Source: a virus
Taxonomy: Duplodnaviria > Caudoviricetes
IMG/VR virus record: IMGVR_UViG_2974704529_000001
Span: 1 to 64,000 of that record
DNA length: 64,000 nt
Reading direction: 5' to 3' (one strand)
In this document: piece after piece, positions 29,102-58,041 of the stretch
Layout of the letters: every line of letters starts with the position of its first letter
Numbering within the stretch: position 1 is the stretch's first letter
Notes under the pieces: model-generated
Databases searched by the model: none
The model's input: only the letters and a program-made list of their open reading frames with translations
What the model was told of the DNA's origin: nothing
Made by a program: the position numbers and the translations under genes

Positions 29102-29434
29102 TTAGGCTCCCTTCGCGTATATGGACGCTTCGTATTCGGGGCAGTAGTAGGCGACCGCGCCGCTAAGGATGCCGACCGCCAGGGCCTTGTCCCCTAAAAG
29201 GTTGGTGTCGTCAGCCAAGATGTCTCGCCATGACGCGCCGTCCGCCAGTTGGGCGCACCGCGACTGAGCGATGGGGACGGCCATGTTGCAGTTAACGTTG
29301 CGCCCCGTCTGCCCGGTCACGTAGGTACAGAACTCGTAGTCGTCCTGCGGCGCGGCGGCGGCTTGCGGGGCGCTTAGGACGCTGAGCGCAAGGGCTGCAA
29401 GCCCCACAAGCGCGCGTGCGTGTCGATTAACCAT
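29102..29434 (-). CDS. secreted protein, DUF732-like
   Basis: Signal peptide; C....A...C..L and A..YYCP motifs of mycobacterial DUF732. Confidence 0.6.
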   Translation of the reverse strand: MVNRHARALVGLAALALSVLSAPQAAAAPQDDYEFCTYVTGQTGRNVNCNMAVPIAQSRCAQLADGASWRDILADDTNLLGDKALAVGILSGAVAYYCPEYEASIYAKGA

Positions 29435-30120
29435 TGGTCGATCTTGGCCCGGTTAGGTTCGTCTGGCAAGGAAGTCGTAGCTTCCGCGCGCTGGATCATG
29501 TCGCGCCAGTCTGCGATGTCCTCTAGCACTTGCGACTGGGCGACCTCGCCGTTGCGGATGCTCAGCAGGTAGTCCCGGCGCAGCTCCATCATGGGCATCT
29601 GCATTTCGCCGCTGACCAGCATTTCGTGGCCCTGCATGAGGAGCCGGAGCGCATGGAACGCGGCCTTAGTGTCGTAGCCGTGGGCCTCAATTAGCTCGGG
29701 CCGGTTGGTGCGCGGCGCGCGTTCGCCGGTTAGCCGGGCGGACATGGAGTCTGCGTATCCCATGTGCCGGGCAGCTAACCGCTTGCTAAGGAACATCTGC
29801 CGGTTCTCTTGGAGCCTGATCATGTCAGGGAAAATCAGGTTAGGCGTGAACAGTAGGGTCATGACCGTAGGGTTGCCCTGGCAAACGAGGCTCACATATT
29901 TGCGCAGCCCGTAAAACTGCGTCTCGGAGTCCCCGGCCTCACTCTTAACACCTTCGGGCTTGTCGCGCCTACGCACGGCCCCGACCTGCGGCTTAAGTCC
30001 GATTAGCGCTTCTGGCGGATCGGGATAGATACCGATGTAGTCATGGTCGGAGTCCTCACGGTTTAGGCCGTGGGCAAACGATCCAATCTCGCCAATGATC
30101 AATGGCTTTATCTCAGCCAC
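29374..30120 (-). CDS. pol-beta superfamily nucleotidyltransferase (RlaP-like, RNA-repair associated)
   Basis: GSFAHGLNREDSDHDYIG motif, GNPT..LLF, YDTK...HALRL. Confidence 0.8.
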   Translation of the reverse strand: MAEIKPLIIGEIGSFAHGLNREDSDHDYIGIYPDPPEALIGLKPQVGAVRRRDKPEGVKSEAGDSETQFYGLRKYVSLVCQGNPTVMTLLFTPNLIFPDMIRLQENRQMFLSKRLAARHMGYADSMSARLTGERAPRTNRPELIEAHGYDTKAAFHALRLLMQGHEMLVSGEMQMPMMELRRDYLLSIRNGEVAQSQVLEDIADWRDMIQRAEATTSLPDEPNRAKIDQWLIDTHARLWGLQPLRSAS

Positions 30121-36272: not shown

Positions 36273-36635
36273 ATGACGGTTATCTACTTGGGCGAACCGA
36301 CCGGCCCGCGACTCCGGAGCCTGACCCGTACCAAAGAGCAGGAGCTTGACGCCTGGCTTACCAGTGCGCTTAAGAACCCGCCCAAAAAGCGCGACCTGCC
36401 TAGCGACCTGGCCGACTTCACCAGGGCTTTAAGTGCCTTAGCTAAGCGTCGGGGTATTCAGTTCCATTTCAACGGGGACCGTATGCGCGTACGTGGCGAA
36501 GTGGTCTTTGGCAGGAACATTCCCGGCTGTGTTGGCGGGTCGAAACGAAAGGTCACGGCGGGTAACGAACGTGAGGCGTTCACGAAACATGGGCAGCGCG
36601 TCGAACCCTGGAATATGAGGGATTGGCGTGAATGA
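36273..36635 (+). CDS. hypothetical protein
   Basis: ATG 36273 with AAAGGG RBS. Confidence 0.6.
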   Translation: MTVIYLGEPTGPRLRSLTRTKEQELDAWLTSALKNPPKKRDLPSDLADFTRALSALAKRRGIQFHFNGDRMRVRGEVVFGRNIPGCVGGSKRKVTAGNEREAFTKHGQRVEPWNMRDWRE

Positions 36636-36689
36636 GTTGACACCAACGGTACAAGGCATGTACCGTACTGATTGCGAGGAGTTCAGAAA

Positions 36690-36869
36690 GTGGCAAAGCA
36701 GTTTTCTTGCCCGCTGGAATGTGGAGCCTCTTACTCCGAGGAGTACCAGCTCCACCTTCACGAGTACGCATCCGAAAAAGGCATCCTTCCGACGTGTGGT
36801 CGGGGGGCCGAACGAAAGGCGCACTATGCCGGAGGCGATCACGCTGCAAACGGACTTGAGGCAGCCTGA
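36690..36869 (+). CDS. small zinc-finger-like protein
   Basis: GTG after GAGGAG RBS; CPLEC...HLH motif. Confidence 0.45.
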   Translation: MAKQFSCPLECGASYSEEYQLHLHEYASEKGILPTCGRGAERKAHYAGGDHAANGLEAA

Positions 36870-37659
36870 GAAGCTAATGCTGGCCGGGGACTGGCACGGC
36901 AATCTGCCGTGGGCGTTCAAGGCGATCCACTTCGCTAAGGCGAACGGCGCAGACACGATTCTGCACGTGGGCGACTTTGGCTGGTGGGCACCGATTGAGC
37001 GGACGTTCCAGTTCCTCTCGGAGGTCGACAAAGAGCTTAAGACGACCGGCATTGACCTCCTGTGGGTCGACGGCAACCACGAGGACCACGCGTTCTGGCA
37101 CCAGTTCAACAAGCCGGGCGCGTATCCACAGACGTTCATGTCCTACTCGTCCATCACGCACTTGCCGCGTGGTTTCCGGTGGAAGTGGTGGGGCGATACG
37201 TGGATGGCGCTGGGTGGCGCTCACTCGGTCGACCGGAGCTGGGCGACGGAGGGTGAAACCTGGTGGCCGGGCGAGTGGTTGCAGGACGACCAGCTTGAGT
37301 ACGCATGTCGACCGGGCAATGTCGACATCATCGTGGCGCATGACGCACCTACTAACGTCACGATCCCTGGCATTGTCCCCGGTAAGGCGATTTACCTGAA
37401 TATCGGTGGCCTTAAGCGCCGTGTTCCGCAGGTGGACTTGCTTAAGGCTGAGGAGCACCGCGCTCGCATTCAGCAGGTCGTGGACACGGTTAAGCCGGTC
37501 GAGTTCTACCACGGCCATTACCACCGGGCTTATCAGTCGTTGGCTCGTCATGAGGGCGGCGGCTACACCCTGTGTCGTGGCCTGGATAAGGACGAAACCA
37601 CGATGGCTAAGAACACCCATTTCATCACCGGAGGGACGCAGGATGACGACGACGACTAA
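36826..37659 (+). CDS. calcineurin-like metallophosphoesterase
   Basis: GDWHGN, HVGDFG, GNHED, AHDAP, HGHYH motifs. Confidence 0.9.
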   Translation: MPEAITLQTDLRQPEKLMLAGDWHGNLPWAFKAIHFAKANGADTILHVGDFGWWAPIERTFQFLSEVDKELKTTGIDLLWVDGNHEDHAFWHQFNKPGAYPQTFMSYSSITHLPRGFRWKWWGDTWMALGGAHSVDRSWATEGETWWPGEWLQDDQLEYACRPGNVDIIVAHDAPTNVTIPGIVPGKAIYLNIGGLKRRVPQVDLLKAEEHRARIQQVVDTVKPVEFYHGHYHRAYQSLARHEGGGYTLCRGLDKDETTMAKNTHFITGGTQDDDDD

Positions 37660-38672: not shown

Positions 38673-39623
38673 TTGAACCGTAAGAAGATTGCCACTCTCG
38701 CACTCGCTGGCCTGGTGGCGCTCCCGATTGTCGGGTGTTCGACTCAGATTCCGGCGGGCCAGAAGGCCGTTAAGGTCGAGGACTACGCGATCATTCCGAC
38801 CGCGCCTGAGCTGATCGGCTGCCAAGACCCAGAGACTTCGGCTTACAACCCGATTGGCGGGTATGAGACGTACCCGTATCCGACGCGGCTGATCAATTAC
38901 GACATGACCGGCGAGCGGGACCAGAGCGGGAACCTGATCGCTGAGGCTGAGGCCACTGTGGTTGTGTCCAACGCTAAGGCTCCGGCTGAGCTGCGGGTGC
39001 CGATCCAGTTGACGTTCGACATGACGAGCGACTGTGACGCGTTGCAGGACTTCCACCGGGAGATTGCTACGCAGTACAGCGCGTGGCTGAACGACGACGG
39101 CTCGGTGTCGGCTGGCTACCTGGACATGCTGCGGAACATCGTCGGCCTGCCTGCGCAGCAGACGTTGATCAAGACGGCGCAGAAGTACACGTGGCGTGAA
39201 ATCTGGAACGACGAGAATGTGCGCGTCGAGTTCCAGAACGCGCTGCGGGAGACGCTGCCGGAGACCGTTAAGGCGCGTACCGGCGGTCGGGAATACTTCA
39301 ACAACTTCACGGTCGTTGTTGGTAAGCCCACTCCGGTGGATCAGAACTTGGTGAATGCCATCACCGCTGAGCAGTCGGCGCTTGCCGAGGCTCAGGCGCG
39401 CGAGGCTAAGGGTGTCGCGGACGCTAAGGCGGCTGAGGCTCAGGCTAACGCGGAAGTTACCTCCGCTGAGGCTCAGACCAAGGTGGCGCAGGAGAAGGCC
39501 AAGCAGCGCCAGGCTGAGGTTTCGGGCTACCCGTCTGAGGACACCTACCTCAAGCAGAAGGCGATTGACGCTGGTATCACTCCGTGGCCCGCGCCGATTG
39601 TTACCGGGATGCCGGTGCGCTAA
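38673..39623 (+). CDS. SPFH/band-7-like lipoprotein
   Basis: Lipobox IVGC; band-7-like core, then an Ala/Glu/Lys coiled-coil. Confidence 0.75.
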   Translation: MNRKKIATLALAGLVALPIVGCSTQIPAGQKAVKVEDYAIIPTAPELIGCQDPETSAYNPIGGYETYPYPTRLINYDMTGERDQSGNLIAEAEATVVVSNAKAPAELRVPIQLTFDMTSDCDALQDFHREIATQYSAWLNDDGSVSAGYLDMLRNIVGLPAQQTLIKTAQKYTWREIWNDENVRVEFQNALRETLPETVKARTGGREYFNNFTVVVGKPTPVDQNLVNAITAEQSALAEAQAREAKGVADAKAAEAQANAEVTSAEAQTKVAQEKAKQRQAEVSGYPSEDTYLKQKAIDAGITPWPAPIVTGMPVR

Positions 39624-40595: not shown

Positions 40596-42026
40596 ATGAC
40601 GACGTTTTTGCAGAGCCTTACCGGCCAGCTCAACACGACCCGCACGGAGAACGGCGATAAGGCGCATAAGTCGTCGCTTGATCCGGTGGTCGATTACTTC
40701 GGTTTGGCGGGCGCTATGCGTGACCGCGCCGAGGCGAGCGCTGATCTGTTTGAGAAGGCGTTCCGCGTTGACCCGCAGGCTGCCGTGCGGACCCTGTTCT
40801 ATCTGCGCGATGTGCGCGGGGGCCAGGGGGAGCGTGACGTGTTCCGCGCGGGCCTCAAGCGCCTGTTTGCCGTCGACCCGTACACGGCGATGGCTGTTGT
40901 TGAGCACGTCCCGTTCTATGGGCGCTGGGATGACTTGTTCATCTTCGGGTCTCAGGTTCCGGCGGGTATCTCAGCGATCATTCGGAACCAGTGGTCCGAC
41001 GACGTTGACGCTTACGAGCGCGGCGAGAAGGTCTCGCTACTGGCTAAGTGGCTGCCGTCCGACAAGAGCCGGTCGAACTTGGAGCTGGCTATCGCGGTCC
41101 GCGAAATGCTGGGTCTGACTCAGCGGGAGTACCGCCAGACGCTTAGCGCGCTTCGGGGTCGTATCGACCTGCTCGAGCACGCCATGTCGGAGGGCGTGTA
41201 CGCGAACGTCGACTACGGCAAGATTCCGGCGCAGGCGCACCGTAAGCACGTTAAGGCGTTCCGGCGCAACGACGGCGAGCGGTACCAGGCGTTCCTAGAC
41301 GCGGTTGACCGTGGCGAGGCCAAGGTGAACACGTCGACCCTGTATCCGTACGAGCTGTACGACATGGTTAAGGGTGGGGACGCGGCTGCCGCTAACACGC
41401 TGTGGAACAACCTGCCGGACTACACGCGCCCCGGCCAGGACGCGATCGTTCTAGCGGACGTTTCAGGCTCGATGTGGGGTCGGCCTATGTCGGTGTCTGT
41501 GTCGCTGGCTTTGTACTTCGCAGAGCGCAACACAGGGCCGTATAAGGGCTACTTCATGACGTTCGCCTCTACGCCTGAGCTGGTGCAGGTAACCGGTAAG
41601 ACGTTGGAGCAGAAGCTTCACGCTATCGAGCACTCGACTGGCTGGTGTGGGTCGACCGACTTGGAAGCGGCGTTTAAGGCGATCCTGCGCGCCGGTAAGC
41701 AGTCGGGCACCGTCCCGGCGACGCTCTACGTCGTGTCGGACATGCAGTTCAATCAGGCGCTTAACCACGCTGATCTGAGCGTGTTTGAGTCGGCCCGGCT
41801 GGACTTCCAGCGGGCGGGGCTTGAGCTGCCGCATGTCGTGTTCTGGAACGTCAATGCGCGCCACGATCAGCTTCCGGCCACGATCCTTGACGGGAACGTG
41901 ACGCTGGTGTCTGGCCTGGCGGCTACGACGTTCGGCATGGCTGTGGAGGGTAAGACCCCTCGTGAGCTGGTAAATGACGTGATCAACAGCGAGCGGTACT
42001 CGCAGATCAACGTTTACGGTTCCTAA
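40596..42026 (+). CDS. Ro60/TROVE-like RNA-binding protein (DUF2828-type, helical ring plus vWA)
   Basis: TENG, LFYLRDVRGGQGER, YGRWDDL, AKWLPS motifs; vWA MIDAS DVSGSM, SDMQF, VVFWNV. Confidence 0.85.
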   Translation: MTTFLQSLTGQLNTTRTENGDKAHKSSLDPVVDYFGLAGAMRDRAEASADLFEKAFRVDPQAAVRTLFYLRDVRGGQGERDVFRAGLKRLFAVDPYTAMAVVEHVPFYGRWDDLFIFGSQVPAGISAIIRNQWSDDVDAYERGEKVSLLAKWLPSDKSRSNLELAIAVREMLGLTQREYRQTLSALRGRIDLLEHAMSEGVYANVDYGKIPAQAHRKHVKAFRRNDGERYQAFLDAVDRGEAKVNTSTLYPYELYDMVKGGDAAAANTLWNNLPDYTRPGQDAIVLADVSGSMWGRPMSVSVSLALYFAERNTGPYKGYFMTFASTPELVQVTGKTLEQKLHAIEHSTGWCGSTDLEAAFKAILRAGKQSGTVPATLYVVSDMQFNQALNHADLSVFESARLDFQRAGLELPHVVFWNVNARHDQLPATILDGNVTLVSGLAATTFGMAVEGKTPRELVNDVINSERYSQINVYGS

Positions 42027-42064
42027 TGTTTCCGATACCGGGTGCCGCCCGGTATCTTTAATCT

Positions 42065-42120
42065 TGTGGACGCTAACAGCAACTAAAACTGTTTGCGGAT
42101 AACAAAGAAATGCGTCCAGT
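42065..42120 (+). ncRNA. Y-RNA-like unit 1
   Basis: TGTGGACGC-TAACAGCAA ... GCGTCC-AGT; TGGACGC pairs with GCGTCCA. Confidence 0.65.
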
Positions 42121-42127
42121 TAAAACG

Positions 42128-42253
42128 TGTGGACTCCTACAGCAATTACAACGCTTCCACTGTTAATGGCGAGGTCTGGGTTCGAGTCCCAGTAGCGGCC
42201 CCGTGTCGCTGTAGCTTAAGGGCAGAGCGCGTATGCAAAAAACGGAGTCCAGT
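42128..42253 (+). ncRNA. Y-RNA-like unit 2 containing a circularly permuted tRNA-Asn(GUU)-like module
   Basis: TGGACTCC/GGAGTCCA closing stem; inside, in order: anticodon arm, T-arm, loop-closed acceptor stem, D-arm. Confidence 0.75.
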
Positions 42254-42260
42254 AAGCGGT

Positions 42261-42325
42261 TGTGGTCACTAACAGCAATCCTATGAAATCAATTTAACTG
42301 AAACTGATAATCAAATGTGACCAGT
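42261..42325 (+). ncRNA. Y-RNA-like unit 3
   Basis: TGTGGTCAC-TAACAGCAA ... GTGACC-AGT; TGGTCAC pairs with GTGACCA. Confidence 0.65.
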
Positions 42326-42341
42326 CTTGCCGCGCCAGATT

Positions 42342-42382
42342 AGCCCCGTATCCAGTCCTAGCCGACTGGCCGGGGCTTTTTT
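42342..42382 (+). terminator. intrinsic terminator closing the RNA array
   Basis: AGCCCCG..CCAGTC/GACTGG..CGGGGCT followed by TTTTT. Confidence 0.8.
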
Positions 42383-42527
42383 GTGCCCTAAGAAAGGATT
42401 TACATGCCTGGACCAATGTCCGCGCCCAACGGAAACGCGCTGATCACCTACAGCGCCGAGGCGCGCAAGAAAGCCGGTCGGACCGGCAAGACGGAGCTTG
42501 TGAAAGCCCGTAAGGGGGATAAGAAGA

Positions 42528-49803: not shown

Positions 49804-50661
49804 GTGACCGTTCACCTAAAGGTCTACGCCGAGAAGCTCGGCACTATTAACGCGGCTGCGGAGGTGTTCAAGTTTCCCGGCGGGGAGCTGCACCTTAGGA
49901 GCATTCTCCCGCCGCTGATTGATGGGACGTGGATTGCGGACGTGCGGGGCGCTGCTACCGACGACCTGGTAACCGCGCTGCTGCTGGCTGACCACGCGGC
50001 GCAACTGGGCCAGCCGTTCGTGTTGTTCCTGCCGTACCTTCCGGCTGCTCGCGCGGACCGGGGGACTCCGTTCGGCCTGCGGGTGTACGCGGACATGATC
50101 AACAACTGCGCGTATGCGGAGCACGTCATGGTCATTGACCCGCATTCGCCGGTCGCTAACCGGCTGGTTAGGAACATCTGTCCGCTTGAGCCTCTGCCGC
50201 TGCTGGACCGGGCGCTAGAGAGTCAGGGCCATTGGCGTTACGACGCGATCATTGCGCCAGATAAAGGCGCGGTGGATCGGGCCGGGGCAATCGCTAAGCA
50301 CTACGGGCTGGACCTGGTTGTGTGCGATAAGGAACGCGATTTCGAGACGGGCCGGATTACCAAGTACAAGGTGCCAGTTCTGTCCACCAAAGGTAAGTAC
50401 CTGGTGGTCGATGACATCTGCGACGGCGGCGGCACCTTCGCGCTCTTGGCTAGCGAGGCGCTTATCTCTAAGTCCAACTTGGACCTTTGGGTTACGCACG
50501 GCATTTTCTCCGGAGCTGCTACCAACCTCCGGAATTACTACGGGCGCATCATGACGACCGACTCTCACCCTGGGCATAACCGGGTGGGTGTGGCTACGTC
50601 GATTGTGCCGACTTTTACATACATGCACCAGGCGATGGTTGAGCTTAAGGGGATAGGGTGA
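49804..50661 (+). CDS. Prs-like pyrophosphokinase (putative ADPR-PP synthetase, Adps)
   Basis: FPGGE, PYLPAARADR, IDPHS, APDKGA, VVDDICDGGGTF PRPP-binding motif. Confidence 0.85.
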   Translation: MTVHLKVYAEKLGTINAAAEVFKFPGGELHLRSILPPLIDGTWIADVRGAATDDLVTALLLADHAAQLGQPFVLFLPYLPAARADRGTPFGLRVYADMINNCAYAEHVMVIDPHSPVANRLVRNICPLEPLPLLDRALESQGHWRYDAIIAPDKGAVDRAGAIAKHYGLDLVVCDKERDFETGRITKYKVPVLSTKGKYLVVDDICDGGGTFALLASEALISKSNLDLWVTHGIFSGAATNLRNYYGRIMTTDSHPGHNRVGVATSIVPTFTYMHQAMVELKGIG

Positions 50662-52142
50662 GCACGAAGTTTGCGCCGGTCGCGGCGCTATTCGAGACGG
50701 ACGCATACAAGCTGGGCCACGTCGACCAGTACGCGCTTAGCGGCGACGTGACGCGGGTGTATTCCAACTACACCAACCGTAAGTCGCGGCTGCCGGGCGT
50801 CGATAAGGTCGTGCATTTCGGCTTGCAGGCATATATCACTAAGCACCTGATGGAGGCTTTCGAGCCGTTCTTCGCGGCTAAGGAGAATGAGGTTGCCGCG
50901 CTTTACGAGGAGCGGGTAGCCCAGATTCTCGGGCCGGATGCGGCCCACTCGATTGGGTCGGACCACATTCGCCAGTTGCACGGCCTTGGGTTCCTGCCAC
51001 TGCGGTTCAGTGCGGTGCCTGAGGGGACGCTAGTGCCTATCGGGGTGCCGTCGTTCACAGTGGAGAACACTCACGAGTCGTTCTACTGGCTGACCAACTA
51101 CATCGAGACCGGCCTGAGCGCTGGGGTGTGGCAGGCCAGCACGAGCGCGACTATCGCCAAGCAGTACCGGCGGGTGCTTGAGGCCGCGGCCTTGCGGACC
51201 GGTGCGGACCTGGCGGGCGTCGACTGGCAGTGCCATGACTTCTCATACCGGGGCATGTCGTCGCATGAGAGCGCGGCGGCGTCGGGCGCAGCCCACCTGC
51301 TGAGCTTCACCGGTACGGACTCGCTGGTGTCGCTGGACTGGATCGACCGTTACTACGGCGGCGATTACGTGGCCGGGTCGGTCCCGGCTACCGAGCACTC
51401 GGTTATGTGCACCGGCATCGAGACTGTCGGGGAGCTTGAGACGTTCAAGCGGCTGCTGGACCTGTACCCGTCCGGCATCGTTAGCGTCGTTAGCGACACG
51501 TTCGATCTATTTAGAGTGCTCAACACGTACCTGCCGACGTTGCATAAGCAGATCGTGGGCCGGGACGGGAAGCTGGTTATCCGGCCTGACTCCGGCGATC
51601 CGGAGAAGATCATTTGCGGCGATCCGGACGCGCCCGCTTTCTCTAACGAGTGGATGGGTGTGCTCGGGCTGCTCTACGAGCACTTCGGCGGCAAGAAAAA
51701 CGCTGCGGGGTTCATTGAGCTTGATCCGCACGTCGGTGTGATCTACGGCGACTCAATCACGGTTGAGCGTGCGACGAGCATTACCGCGCGCATGGAGAAG
51801 CTGGGTTACGCGTCGTCCAACGTCGTGTTTGGCGTGGGTAGCTTCACGTACCAGTACAACACGCGTGACACGTTCGGGTCCGCGATGAAAGCGACGTGGG
51901 CTGAGGTCGACGGCAAGGGTTACAACCTGCTCAAGAATCCGGTGACCGACGACGGGACTAAGAAGTCCGCTACGGGCCGGTTGGCTGTGTTGGAGAACAT
52001 CTGGGGCGATCTGGCGCTCAAGCAGAACGCCACGATTGAGGACGAGAAGTCGAGCTTGCTCCGTCCCGTCTGGGAGAACGGAAAGTTTCTAGGCCGGCAA
52101 TCGTTTGCGCAGGTCAGAGGCGTTTTAGCGCGTCAGCGGTAG
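50658..52142 (+). CDS. NAMPT-like protein (putative Namat)
   Basis: TDAYKLGH, HDFSYRG, GTDS, SVPATEHSV, SVVSDTFD, IRPDSGDP, IYGDSIT, KKSATG. Confidence 0.9.
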   Translation: MSTKFAPVAALFETDAYKLGHVDQYALSGDVTRVYSNYTNRKSRLPGVDKVVHFGLQAYITKHLMEAFEPFFAAKENEVAALYEERVAQILGPDAAHSIGSDHIRQLHGLGFLPLRFSAVPEGTLVPIGVPSFTVENTHESFYWLTNYIETGLSAGVWQASTSATIAKQYRRVLEAAALRTGADLAGVDWQCHDFSYRGMSSHESAAASGAAHLLSFTGTDSLVSLDWIDRYYGGDYVAGSVPATEHSVMCTGIETVGELETFKRLLDLYPSGIVSVVSDTFDLFRVLNTYLPTLHKQIVGRDGKLVIRPDSGDPEKIICGDPDAPAFSNEWMGVLGLLYEHFGGKKNAAGFIELDPHVGVIYGDSITVERATSITARMEKLGYASSNVVFGVGSFTYQYNTRDTFGSAMKATWAEVDGKGYNLLKNPVTDDGTKKSATGRLAVLENIWGDLALKQNATIEDEKSSLLRPVWENGKFLGRQSFAQVRGVLARQR

Positions 52143-52228: not shown

Positions 52229-53155
52229 ATGACGACCTTATGGGCGATGCGGGGTTATCCCGGCTCTGGTAAATCGACCAGGGCGCGTGAAATCGCTGAC
52301 GAGACCGGCGCGGTTGTCGTTTGTCGTGACGACTTGCGCATGATGCTGCACGGCACGTATTTCTCGGGCAAGAAAGAGCTTGAGGAGGAGGTTACGGTTG
52401 CGGAGCGGGCGCAGGTTAGCGCGTTCCTTAAGGCCGGTATCTCCGTCGTTGTCGACGCCACGCATTTGGAGCCGTCTTACCTGCGTAAGTGGGCGAAGAT
52501 GGCGAGCATGTACGGCGCAGAGTTCAAGCGCGTCGATATCGAGACTCCCGCTAGCTACTGCATCGTCGCTGACTTTAAGCGCGGCGAGGCCGGGGACCGG
52601 ACTGTCGGCGCGGAGGTGATTAACCGGATGGCTAAGCGTCACCCGATTAAGAACTGGCCGAATATCCAGGCTCCTCCGACGTTCGACCCTAAGCCGGTCG
52701 AATGGATTGAGGGTCTGCGGGAGGCCATCATCGTGGATATCGACGGCACGGTGGCCCACATGACGGGCCGGTCACCCTACGACTACACGCAGGTCCATAC
52801 CGACGTGGTTGACGAGAACGTGCGCTGGCTGGTCAACGTGATTGACCAGTTTGGCATCACCAACGATGTATCGGTGCTGTTCGTATCGGGCCGGGACGAC
52901 TCTTGCCGTAACGAGACGGTTCGTTGGTTGTACGACAACGGCATTCCGTTCGATGAGCTGCACATGCGGCCTACCGGCGCTAAGGATGAGCACGGTAACA
53001 AGCTGCCGGATTACCTGGTCAAGTACGACCTGTTCGACCAGAACATTCGCGGTAAGTACAACGTGCGGTTTGTGTTGGACGACCGGGACCAGGTTGTGAA
53101 CTTGTGGCGCTCGCTGGGCCTTAAGTGCCTGCAAGTTCAGCCGGGAGACTTCTAA
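52229..53155 (+). CDS. polynucleotide kinase/3'-phosphatase (T4 PseT-like Pnkp)
   Basis: GYPGSGKST P-loop, CRDDLR; HAD DIDGT, SGR, DDR motifs. Confidence 0.93.
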   Translation: MTTLWAMRGYPGSGKSTRAREIADETGAVVVCRDDLRMMLHGTYFSGKKELEEEVTVAERAQVSAFLKAGISVVVDATHLEPSYLRKWAKMASMYGAEFKRVDIETPASYCIVADFKRGEAGDRTVGAEVINRMAKRHPIKNWPNIQAPPTFDPKPVEWIEGLREAIIVDIDGTVAHMTGRSPYDYTQVHTDVVDENVRWLVNVIDQFGITNDVSVLFVSGRDDSCRNETVRWLYDNGIPFDELHMRPTGAKDEHGNKLPDYLVKYDLFDQNIRGKYNVRFVLDDRDQVVNLWRSLGLKCLQVQPGDF

Positions 53156-56760: not shown

Positions 56761-58041
56761 GTGAGCTTTGACGCTCCGGAGAACGCTAACTACGCGGCGA
56801 CAATCGTTAAGCTGCCGCAGGGCGTCCTCCTAGACGGCCTGGACAACTTGGTCGGCGTGCCCATGTTCGGGTACCAGGCGCTCACTCAGAAAGAGGGCTA
56901 CGAGCTGGGCGCGCTGCGGGTGCTGTTCATGGCTGAGACTCAGCTAGACACTGAGTATGCGCGGCAGAGCAACCTGTTCCGTGAGGCCACGCTGAACCGG
57001 GACGCGAGCGCGACCGGCTACCTAGAGCCGAATGCCCGCGTTAAGGCGCTGCGGCTGCGTAAGCACCAGTCGGACGCGCTGCTGATGCCGGTGTCGTCGC
57101 TGGCCTATACCGGCTACGACGTGTCGACGCTCAAGCCGGGGGACACGTTCGACAAGCTGAACGGTCACACGATCTGCCGGAAGTACGTCCCGAAGGGTAA
57201 GAAGCAGGCCACTCAGGGCCAGCCCAAGGTTCGTAAGCAGGTTGATGAGCGGCTGTTCCCGAAGCACCTGGACACGGAACATCTGTTCCGGAACCTGCAT
57301 TACTTCCGTGACGCTAAGCGCCTGGTGGTGACGCAGAAGTTGCACGGCACGAGCTGGCGCGGCGGCAATGTCCCGGTCAACCGGACTAAGGGTCGGTTTG
57401 AGCGGTTCCTGAACCGGCTGGGTGTTGTCACTCCTGACACGGAGTACAAGCACGTCTACGGCTCTCGGAACGTGGTTAAGGGCCGGTCGGAGAACAACCA
57501 CTACTACAAGACCGATTTGTGGTCGAAGTTCGGCGCGAAGCTTGACGGCAAGATTCCGGAGAACTTCATCATTTACGGCGAGCTGGTCGGGTGGGTTAGC
57601 GAGGATGAGCCGATCCAGAGGGGTTACACCTACGACCTGCCGCCGGGTGAGTGCGAGCTTTACGTGTACCGGGTAGCGACGGTGAACCCTAAGGGTGTTA
57701 TCGCTGACCTGTCATGGGAAGGCGTTAAGGACTTCTGCCGGACGTTGGAACTTAAGACGGTGCCAGAGTTCGGGTACGACACTGAGCATCTTCCGAATCA
57801 GGAGTCGGAGGAGTTGTTCATTGAGGATTACCAGGAAACCTATCTAGATCGGCGCTACGCGGACGATTACCCGACCGGTGGGTATCTGCCGCTGAGTGAC
57901 CGTAAGACGGTTGACGAGGGTGTCTGCGTCCGTATCGAGGGCCAGATTCCCCACGTCTTTAAGGCTAAGTCTCCGAAGTTCCTTGAGCACGAGACTAAGC
58001 AGTTGGATAAGGGAGAGGTTGACCTTGAGTCGGTGGCTTAA
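56761..58041 (+). CDS. ATP-dependent RNA ligase (Rnl2/DRB0094-like)
   Basis: Motif I TQKLHGTS, IIYGELVG, YVYRV, EGVCVR, FKAKSPKFL; N-terminal extra domain. Confidence 0.8.
   Translation: MSFDAPENANYAATIVKLPQGVLLDGLDNLVGVPMFGYQALTQKEGYELGALRVLFMAETQLDTEYARQSNLFREATLNRDASATGYLEPNARVKALRLRKHQSDALLMPVSSLAYTGYDVSTLKPGDTFDKLNGHTICRKYVPKGKKQATQGQPKVRKQVDERLFPKHLDTEHLFRNLHYFRDAKRLVVTQKLHGTSWRGGNVPVNRTKGRFERFLNRLGVVTPDTEYKHVYGSRNVVKGRSENNHYYKTDLWSKFGAKLDGKIPENFIIYGELVGWVSEDEPIQRGYTYDLPPGECELYVYRVATVNPKGVIADLSWEGVKDFCRTLELKTVPEFGYDTEHLPNQESEELFIEDYQETYLDRRYADDYPTGGYLPLSDRKTVDEGVCVRIEGQIPHVFKAKSPKFLEHETKQLDKGEVDLESVA

Follow-up and report, generated by a model that had tools for sequence, protein, structure and literature searches.

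A DUF2828 gene and an adjoining array of Y-RNA-like units in a Cluster L mycobacteriophage point to an uncatalogued family of phage small RNAs

Ro60-Y RNA particles constitute a classic, poorly understood RNA-surveillance system. The DNA considered here, positions 1 to 64,000 of the IMG/VR virus record IMGVR_UViG_2974704529_000001 (hereafter the window, part of a 77.9-kb virus record), is 94% identical to the corresponding region of Mycobacterium phage Archie and about 40 other Cluster L phages of Mycobacterium smegmatis. Directly 3' of a gene for a DUF2828-type protein (40596–42026), it carries three short units that share one structural handle. With a probability that we put at roughly 70%, these units are small-RNA genes of a large uncatalogued family, in which the handle docks the DUF2828 protein and the products form Y-RNA-like ribonucleoproteins (RNPs). 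Such a locus would be a second, sequence-unrelated dialect of the Ro60-Y RNA system, with another protein family and another RNA handle.

The three units follow a common plan, comprising a 7-bp closing helix, 2 nt, a single-stranded ACAGCAA core, a variable interior, the 3' strand of the helix and a G. The array starts 39 nt 3' of the stop codon of the gene, on the same (plus) strand. Unit 1 (42065–42120, 56 nt) has its helix at 42067–42073/42112–42118, followed by the spacer TA, the core at 42076–42082 and an unpaired G at 42119; unit 2 (42128–42253, 126 nt) has its closing helix at 42130–42137/42244–42251 and the core at 42139–42145; and unit 3 (42261–42325, 65 nt) has its helix at 42263–42269/42317–42323, again with the spacer TA, the core at 42272–42278 and an unpaired G at 42324. 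The closing stems are TGGACGC/GCGTCCA, TGGACTCC/GGAGTCCA and TGGTCAC/GTGACCA in units 1, 2 and 3, respectively, and 7-nt spacers (TAAAACG and AAGCGGT) lie between the units. Unit 1 contains a small hairpin in its interior, whereas that of unit 3 is A/U-rich. The pattern GTGG-N6-ACAGCAA occurs three times in the 64-kb window, each time in the array, compared with 0.02 occurrences expected from dinucleotide shuffles, and no further exact-core unit exists anywhere in the 77.9-kb genome. Pairing of ACAGCAA within its own RNA was considered as a conserved feature and rejected, the predicted core pairing being inconsistent among the three units (0.58, 0.35 and 0.13). An earlier model-made reading of the bare DNA letters (the sequence-only reading) had already delimited the three units, both 7-nt spacers and a terminator, and all of these coordinates hold; the interiors that it described as entirely different are indeed unrelated in sequence and unequal in length.

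The array is flanked by two further structures on the same strand. A stable hairpin (42034–42056; −17.3 kcal/mol, with a weak U tail only), absent from the list given by the sequence-only reading, occupies the interval between the stop codon and unit 1, and the intrinsic terminator (42342–42382), proposed earlier as a U-tailed element, folds as a GC-rich two-tier hairpin of 7 bp and 6 bp followed by U6. In the Cluster L phages Wyatt2 and Samty, a hairpin occupies the equivalent post-stop position, with a different sequence in Samty, and an equivalent terminator lies 3' of the last unit. No promoter-like site was found 5' of unit 1 in the window. The succession of gene, hairpin, three RNAs and terminator, with the same layout in Wyatt2 and Samty, suggests a single transcription unit, in which the post-stop hairpin may protect the mRNA 3' end, terminate transcription leakily or define where processing occurs. 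GenBank records of the relatives leave the 350 nt 3' of the gene unannotated, apart from occasional tRNA-Asn or tRNA-Thr calls.

Within Cluster L, the three units are kept in Archie, Lewan, Faith1, Crossroads, Wyatt2, Samty and Lolly9, and the array persists in other subclusters with compensatory helix changes. The helix of unit 1 appears as TGGACGC/GCGTCCA, TGAGCGC/GCGCTCA or TGGACACA/TGTGTCCA; that of unit 2 as TGGACTCC or TGGACCCC, each with its matching 3' strand; and that of unit 3 as TGGTCAC, or as TGGACGG/CCGTCCA in Samty and Lolly9. The core of unit 2 in Wyatt2 is GCAGCAA, and a reading of the sequences indicates that the 7-nt-loop hairpin of unit 1 is kept by covarying stems. The unit 2 sequences of Crossroads (L005:1299-1429) and Faith1 (L007:1299-1420) are alike in handle, linker and 3' end; in Crossroads, the T arm, acceptor-like hairpin and D arm of the tRNA-like interior are replaced by different ones, and the anticodon-like loop has 8 nt. 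Recombination seems to have exchanged the payload here, and the presence of a different tRNA-like core in an otherwise identical handle is direct evidence for payload swapping.

The same architecture was found in each of six phages sampled blind (Listeria P61, Escherichia VpaE1 of the Felix O1 type, Staphylococcus S-CoN_Ph5, Campylobacter CP39, Bacillus MrDarsey and Sinorhizobium phiM7), where it adjoins the DUF2828 gene on its strand, either upstream or downstream, and often amid tRNA genes. With 80 IMG/VR loci added, the full set comprised 93 loci and 630 kb. A rule requiring a helix of at least 7 bp, a 2-nt spacer and an exact ACAGCAA identified 129 units on the gene strand and one on the opposite strand; an earlier, looser form of this rule gave about 8 units per mononucleotide shuffle. 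When one core mismatch was allowed, the counts were 248 and 35, respectively, with at least one unit in 82 of the 93 loci. The resulting consensus is W-[W R G R C N C]-NN-ACAGCAA ... [G N G Y C Y W]-G-U, in which each core position is 86–97% conserved. The TGTGG and AGT flanks that the sequence-only reading called invariant are so in Cluster L; family-wide, only a W-R-G helix start and the unpaired G after the helix remain of them. Unit lengths peak at about 50–70 nt, with a secondary cluster near 120–130 nt and a median of 67 nt. Relative to the gene, 138 units lie upstream and 82 downstream, at median distances near 400 nt; arrays reach up to 8 units, and some units are situated amid tRNA genes up to 2–3 kb away.

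A covariance model, termed R1, gave 115 matches at E ≤ 0.01 in the 80 IMG/VR loci, none of them opposite the gene strand. Across 549 kb of five complete phage genomes, it returned 11 matches in four genomes, each no more than 2.7 kb from the gene and on its strand; the fifth, CP39, gave no R1 match, the search prefilter having yielded nothing, although the rule finds two units there. In three loci outside the training set, R1 matches lay directly downstream of the gene in all three. Helix sequences are shared within genomes more at positions 1, 2 and 5 than at positions 4 and 6 (excess over between-genome identity of 0.15–0.26 versus 0.04–0.07), which hints that part of the helix may be read sequence-specifically and may co-evolve with each protein. 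Two proposals of the sequence-only reading are borne out by this wider sample: stems that change sequence yet keep pairing recur, through compensatory changes, in Cluster L and in unrelated phages, as does a constant handle around changing payloads, and a search of the flanks of DUF2828 genes in other phages, which it had recommended, places the motif next to the gene in the 82 loci given above.

A conserved protein-coding neighbour was not found when 541 flanking open reading frames (ORFs) were clustered, no family occurring in more than 6 of 86 loci, and a fixed multi-protein operon was rejected on this ground. The RNAs are thus the only constant companion of the gene, while tRNA genes lie within 3 kb of it in 56 of 90 loci. 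Rfam 15 contains no family for the ACAGCAA handle, and only tRNAs reached the gathering threshold in the window and six other phage loci; a CRISPR-DR61 match (17 bits, E 5.4) and other weak Rfam matches in the window were rejected as noise. The earlier suggestion of an undescribed family tied to DUF2828-type proteins agrees with these results. No description of DUF2828-associated RNAs was found in the literature searched; papers outside it may contain an earlier mention.

The protein encoded at 40596–42026 (plus strand, 476 aa) consists of an alpha-helical repeat domain and a vWA domain with an intact MIDAS motif (metal-ion-dependent adhesion site). It matches the Pfam families DUF2828 (E 2e-28) and DUF7788 (a vWA family; E 6e-30), and a Pfam scan at E ≤ 0.1 returned DUF7788, DUF2828, VWA_CoxE and VWA_2 only. 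An AlphaFold2 model built on 33 homologs reached a predicted local distance difference test (pLDDT) value of 90.2 and a predicted template modelling (pTM) score of 0.88. When this predicted model was compared with known structures by Foldseek, ranks 1–11 and 13 (no rank 12 was listed) were all Ro60 chains, from Xenopus, human, Deinococcus (Rsr) and the Thermus phage phiLo, aligned over the whole chain (E 3e-8 to 3e-5, best template modelling score 0.55–0.62, about 500–560 aligned columns), with plain vWA domains following from E 2e-3. Identity to the solved Ro60 structures is 10–15%. The MIDAS residues D288-x-S290-x-S292, T354 and D382 are invariant in the 33-sequence alignment, and a basic stretch, R-D-x-R-G-G-x-G-E-R, is invariant or nearly so. 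The predicted architecture, a helical-repeat ring with a C-terminal vWA domain, corresponds to the Ro60 fold, and the protein appears to be a distant Ro60-fold protein outside the TROVE family as Pfam defines it; the Ro60-like identity proposed by the sequence-only reading is accordingly retained by fold, with Ro60 chains at the top of the Foldseek ranking and the MIDAS intact, and not by a Pfam TROVE match. GenBank records of the relatives annotate the gene as "Ro-like RNA binding protein". Homologues were detected by tblastn in 707 cultured-phage records covering more than 30 host genera, and the family comprises more than 6,500 protein clusters in metagenomes.

The interior of unit 2 is a circularly permuted tRNA-like body with the arm order typical of YrlA RNAs, namely an anticodon-like hairpin (42157–42169; 3 bp, with the perfect anticodon-type loop CUGUUAA), a T arm (42176–42192), a 7-bp acceptor-like hairpin (42193–42211) and a D arm (42214–42228), all on the plus strand. 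Rotated into tRNA order, this body finds its best alignment in tRNA-Asn(GUU) of the same phage at 67522–67595 (score 63, compared with 38–55 for the other nine tRNAs tested), the D arm, anticodon loop and T loop of which match it most closely. ARAGORN predicts no tRNA in the window, and none in unit 2 even with relaxed settings. Within the array-matching stretch, tRNA-Thr or tRNA-Asn is annotated in KX580961 (Zakai), KX580962 (Wilder) and KX507361/NC_031124 (Gardann). These features most likely lie over unit 2, in which case they are probably mis-annotations of a permuted tRNA-like RNA, because ARAGORN makes no call at the equivalent site in the window. Units 1 and 3 have no tRNA features. Family-wide, a T loop is present in 23 of 48 mid-sized units, and hairpins with a 7-nt loop are over-represented inside small units (34 of 81, versus 34 of about 300 in shuffles), 15 of which fit the anticodon-loop pattern YU-NNN-R-N, compared with 1 in shuffles.

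Ro60 proteins hold Y RNA at their outer surface and take up the ends of misfolded RNA in the central cavity. Known Ro60/Y RNA systems include those of Deinococcus (Yrn1/Yrn2), Salmonella and M. smegmatis (YrlA/YrlB), and Cluster C mycobacteriophages (Chen et al. 2014, PMC4201824; Rfam RF02553). The window locus resembles them in several respects: a ring-type helical-repeat and vWA protein is encoded beside two or more small RNAs on the same strand, the 5' and 3' ends of each RNA pair with each other and a conserved motif lies just 3' of the 5' strand, and the locus is polycistronic, with one RNA carrying a permuted tRNA-like module and the others simple hairpins. The YrlA hallmark of a tRNA-like module within a terminal helix is seen in unit 2 only, whereas location within 4 kb of a Ro-type gene on the same strand holds for the array and family-wide. 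Canonical bacterial and phage Y RNAs lie beside TROVE Ro60 genes and have GNCGAA(N)G adjoining the 5' strand of a long closing helix (PMC4201824). The window protein belongs instead to DUF2828/DUF7788, its RNAs have NN-ACAGCAA in place of GNCGAA(N)G, and their closing helix is short (7 bp) and bulge-free; G-N-CGAA is absent throughout 42027–42400. Unit 2 matches the Rfam YrlA model (RF02553) along its entire length, but at 23.1 bits (E 0.018) it stays below the gathering cut-off of 69; units 1 and 3 give no match. The Y-RNA-like identity put forward by the sequence-only reading, which had itself named a comparison with Rfam, is supported: unit 2 has the T arm, acceptor-like hairpin and D arm, but reaches only 23 bits against the cut-off of 69.

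Bxz1, a mycobacteriophage with a TROVE Ro60 gene, provides a useful reference. A YrlA-like match 260 nt upstream of that gene scores 32.5 bits, likewise below 69, and such a low score for a Y-like RNA beside a canonical Ro60 indicates that the YrlA model is insensitive for phage members. Two Y-like RNAs with long closing helices and the motifs GGCCGAGAG and GGCCGAAGG were observed upstream of this gene (L097:1120-1380), the first of which carries a tRNA-like module. R1 has no match in Bxz1 (156 kb). The RNAs of Bxz1 are of the GNCGAA type and none has ACAGCAA, which accords with the earlier statement that the handle does not resemble the Y RNA consensus; two mycobacteriophage lineages on the same host thus have two protein families and two handles. 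The Thermus phage phiLo likewise encodes a Ro60-fold protein, among the best structural matches to the window protein model, with two Y-like RNA genes (Yrl1/Yrl2) beside it. The phiLo protein is reported to bind these RNAs and to be capable of associating with host PNPase in a complex (NAR 2025, PMC12135203; PDB 9KOP, 9L5Y). It differs from the window protein in being a recognisable Ro60 homolog, and its RNAs were found via a CGAA motif (PMC12135203), whereas the window RNAs have another handle.

The anatomy, conservation, covariation, and strand and location specificity of the units, together with the fold of the modelled protein, are observed here; RNA expression, processing, binding to the protein and a physiological role are inferred. 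In the proposed scheme, the handle (the 7-bp end-joining helix, 2-nt spacer, single-stranded ACAGCAA and unpaired G) would be the docking site for the adjacent DUF2828 protein, so that gene and array together would give rise to a set of Y-RNA-like RNPs with one protein and several RNAs. Gene and RNAs would probably share one transcript, from which the RNAs would be excised in the stretch bounded by the post-stop hairpin and the terminator. The variable interior would be the payload, a permuted tRNA-Asn-like body in unit 2 and, in units 1 and 3, a short hairpin set within an A/U-rich loop, and by analogy with Ro60/Y RNA (PMC4201824, PMC12135203) the payloads may tether or gate the ring protein, or act as decoys or tRNA mimics toward tRNA-handling enzymes. 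RNA damage and repair during infection would be a plausible setting.

Several results weigh against this scheme. The TROVE model (PF05731) does not reach the protein even in the scan at E ≤ 0.1, while in a positive control the same model does detect the Bxz1 Ro60 gene, and a profile search of PDB sequences gave Xenopus Ro60 as its sole match, at E 0.22 and at the MIDAS region. The handle lacks the GNCGAA/GGUCCGA motif contacted by Ro60 proteins, so that the recognition analogy is structural and not sequence-based. No unit was found within 3 kb of the gene in 11 of the 93 loci, and only 55 of the 80 IMG/VR loci have an R1 match. Among 58 small units, double-sided changes occur at 7 of 7 helix pairs and 98.8% of cells are paired, but these units were chosen for pairing, and the true controls are the strand asymmetry and the shuffles. 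In the same way, the R1 scores of units 1 and 3 (41.1 and 47.7 bits) come from members of the training set, and their E-values hold by construction. Co-location also leaves a host factor, instead of the protein, as a possible reader of the handle.

Other explanations have been weighed against the docking of partner RNAs by the DUF2828 protein. It is rather unlikely that the handle elements act in cis as operators of the DUF2828 transcript, bound by the protein or by a host factor and controlling its translation, stability or processing, or that of neighbouring tRNA transcripts, instead of free partner RNAs. The distribution of units in the untranslated flanks of the gene, on both its sides and at the short median distances given above, would suit such operators, as would the location of the array between stop codon and terminator with no promoter-like site 5' of unit 1. 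However, arrays of up to 8 units and units amid tRNA genes 2–3 kb away are hard to fit to the control of one gene; moreover, every unit forms a closed structure of its own, with its ends joined by a helix as in mature Y RNAs and tRNAs, and tRNA-like bodies make up the payloads.

A toxin-antitoxin-like pair resembling type III systems, in which the Ro-like protein is harmful alone and the RNAs mainly sequester it, appears somewhat less likely still. The corresponding gene of the relative LeBron (gp53) is by itself moderately cytotoxic in M. smegmatis (PMC13148394), and here an RNA array lies beside the gene, bounded by hairpins. Nevertheless, 39 LeBron genes were scored cytotoxic in the same work (PMC13148394), many overexpressed phage proteins being toxic, and the gp53 growth phenotype is also consistent with a protein that carries no RNA and acts on that of the host. 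In type III systems, the antitoxin array consists of near-identical tandem repeats that the endoribonuclease toxin itself cuts, whereas the interiors in the window are unrelated and the protein has the predicted Ro60 fold and vWA domain with no nuclease fold; in addition, the family is found in lytic phages with large tRNA arrays. The least credible alternative regards the units as decayed tRNA genes or structured debris and terminator-like hairpins with no shared function, ACAGCAA being a lineage relic. The tRNA-derived interior of unit 2, the tRNA-Asn or tRNA-Thr called there in some GenBank records and the many loci inside tRNA arrays could be read in this way. Yet one 7-nt core, at a fixed register to a covarying helix, is kept across phages of Actinobacteria, Firmicutes, Proteobacteria and Campylobacterota, although their proteins share 30–40% identity, the strand bias is 129 to 1, units 1 and 3 are devoid of tRNA features, and the array lies 22 kb from the tRNA cluster of the phage.

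A further likeness concerns the Class I RNAs of Dictyostelium (RF01414; Kjellin et al. 2021, PMC7919456), which are about 60 nt long, with a short covarying helix joining their ends and a variable remainder. The motif directly 3' of the 5' strand is CCUUACAGCAA in Class I RNAs versus C-NN-ACAGCAA in the phages, the ACAGCAA core corresponding to Class I motif positions 5–11, and the positions most conserved in dictyostelids (C6, C9, A10 and A11) are also more than 90% conserved in phages. Units 1 and 3, at 56 and 65 nt, follow the Class I design of an end-joining helix, an adjacent motif and a length of about 42–65 nt. Among Rfam families, RF01414 gives the best full-length match to the small units of two lineages, Staphylococcus (22.4 bits twice) and Felix O1-type (19.7 and 17.9 bits), and a part-length match of 20.8 bits inside unit 2 of the window; all of these scores (18–22 bits) are far below the gathering cut-off of 41.5. 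Class I RNAs also differ in having a 6-bp helix and a 3-nt spacer and in being transcribed from eukaryotic nuclear genes with a DUSE promoter about 60 nt upstream, whereas the window units follow one another in tandem within a transcription unit of a phage. The comparison therefore amounts to a resemblance and not to membership, which fails by score, spacer length, promoter and host.

The only known direct binder of Class I RNAs is Rnp1A, a protein with an RNA recognition motif, and the class has been reported to be unique to Dictyostelia (PMC7919456). Searches for a link at the protein level gave two uninformative longer homologs, 120 unnamed metagenomic proteins of near length and, in the Atlas, viral and bacterial clusters only. 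Pfam describes DUF2828 as also present in eukaryotes. That the phage RNAs and the Class I RNAs represent a single type of molecule, bound in each case by Ro60-like proteins of the DUF2828 type, is a long shot; if it were true, the long-unexplained Class I RNAs would play the part of Y RNAs in a second, ancient lineage of Ro-like RNPs spanning viruses, bacteria and eukaryotes.

The consistent pairing of this very large protein family with several RNAs bearing tRNA-like parts points to an unrecognised phage route for dealing with tRNA or RNA damage, or with host enzymes acting on tRNA. Cluster L mycobacteriophages can be engineered. Their host is M. smegmatis mc2 155, and for the LeBron gene an inducible expression clone with a growth phenotype is already available (PMC13148394), so that binding, processing and function are directly testable. 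The host also carries a canonical Rsr-YrlA system (PMC4201824), which makes possible a side-by-side comparison of handle specificity.

The surrounding genome supports an RNA-damage or tRNA theme. Genes related to RNA repair are dispersed in the window, 10–15 kb from the array locus, and include an RlaP nucleotidyltransferase (29374–30120, minus strand; E 9e-24), a Pnkp kinase with a HAD phosphatase (52229–53155, plus strand; E 1e-47) and an RNA ligase (56761–58041, plus strand; E 3e-13); a calcineurin-like phosphoesterase (metallophosphoesterase) is encoded at 36628–37659 (plus strand). Eleven tRNA genes follow just past the window, at 64028–67863 of the phage's own genome. In encoding Pnkp, RNA ligase and RlaP, the phage resembles T4-type tRNA repair (Pnkp and RNA ligase), and in LeBron the RNA ligase and polynucleotide kinase genes were cytotoxic on overexpression, while clones of a predicted phosphoesterase were not recoverable (PMC13148394). 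In the Listeria phage locus, an RtcB-type ligase lies 1.3 kb from the DUF2828 gene. A functional link between the array locus and RNA repair is no more than suggested by this context. In Salmonella, the gene for Rsr shares a locus with the YrlA/YrlB RNAs, within 2 kb (PMC4201824). The loci described here differ from RNA-repair operons of the RtcB/Rsr kind in that no repair gene is a conserved neighbour across them.

Some minor observations concern other genes near these loci. In a 280-kb metagenomic contig, a gene with a Pfam Band_7 (SPFH) match lies 1.6 kb upstream of the DUF2828 gene (L102:1604-2422). The Lewan gene at the position of the window ORF 38673–39623 is annotated as band-7-like, and that of other relatives as a lipoprotein; the window ORF itself has no Pfam match. 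SPFH/Band-7 modules were reportedly proposed by Burroughs and Aravind in 2016 as RNA-repair scaffolds. At 49804–50661, the window encodes a phosphoribosyltransferase domain (E 5e-6), which overlaps the start of a 494-aa ORF at 50658–52142.

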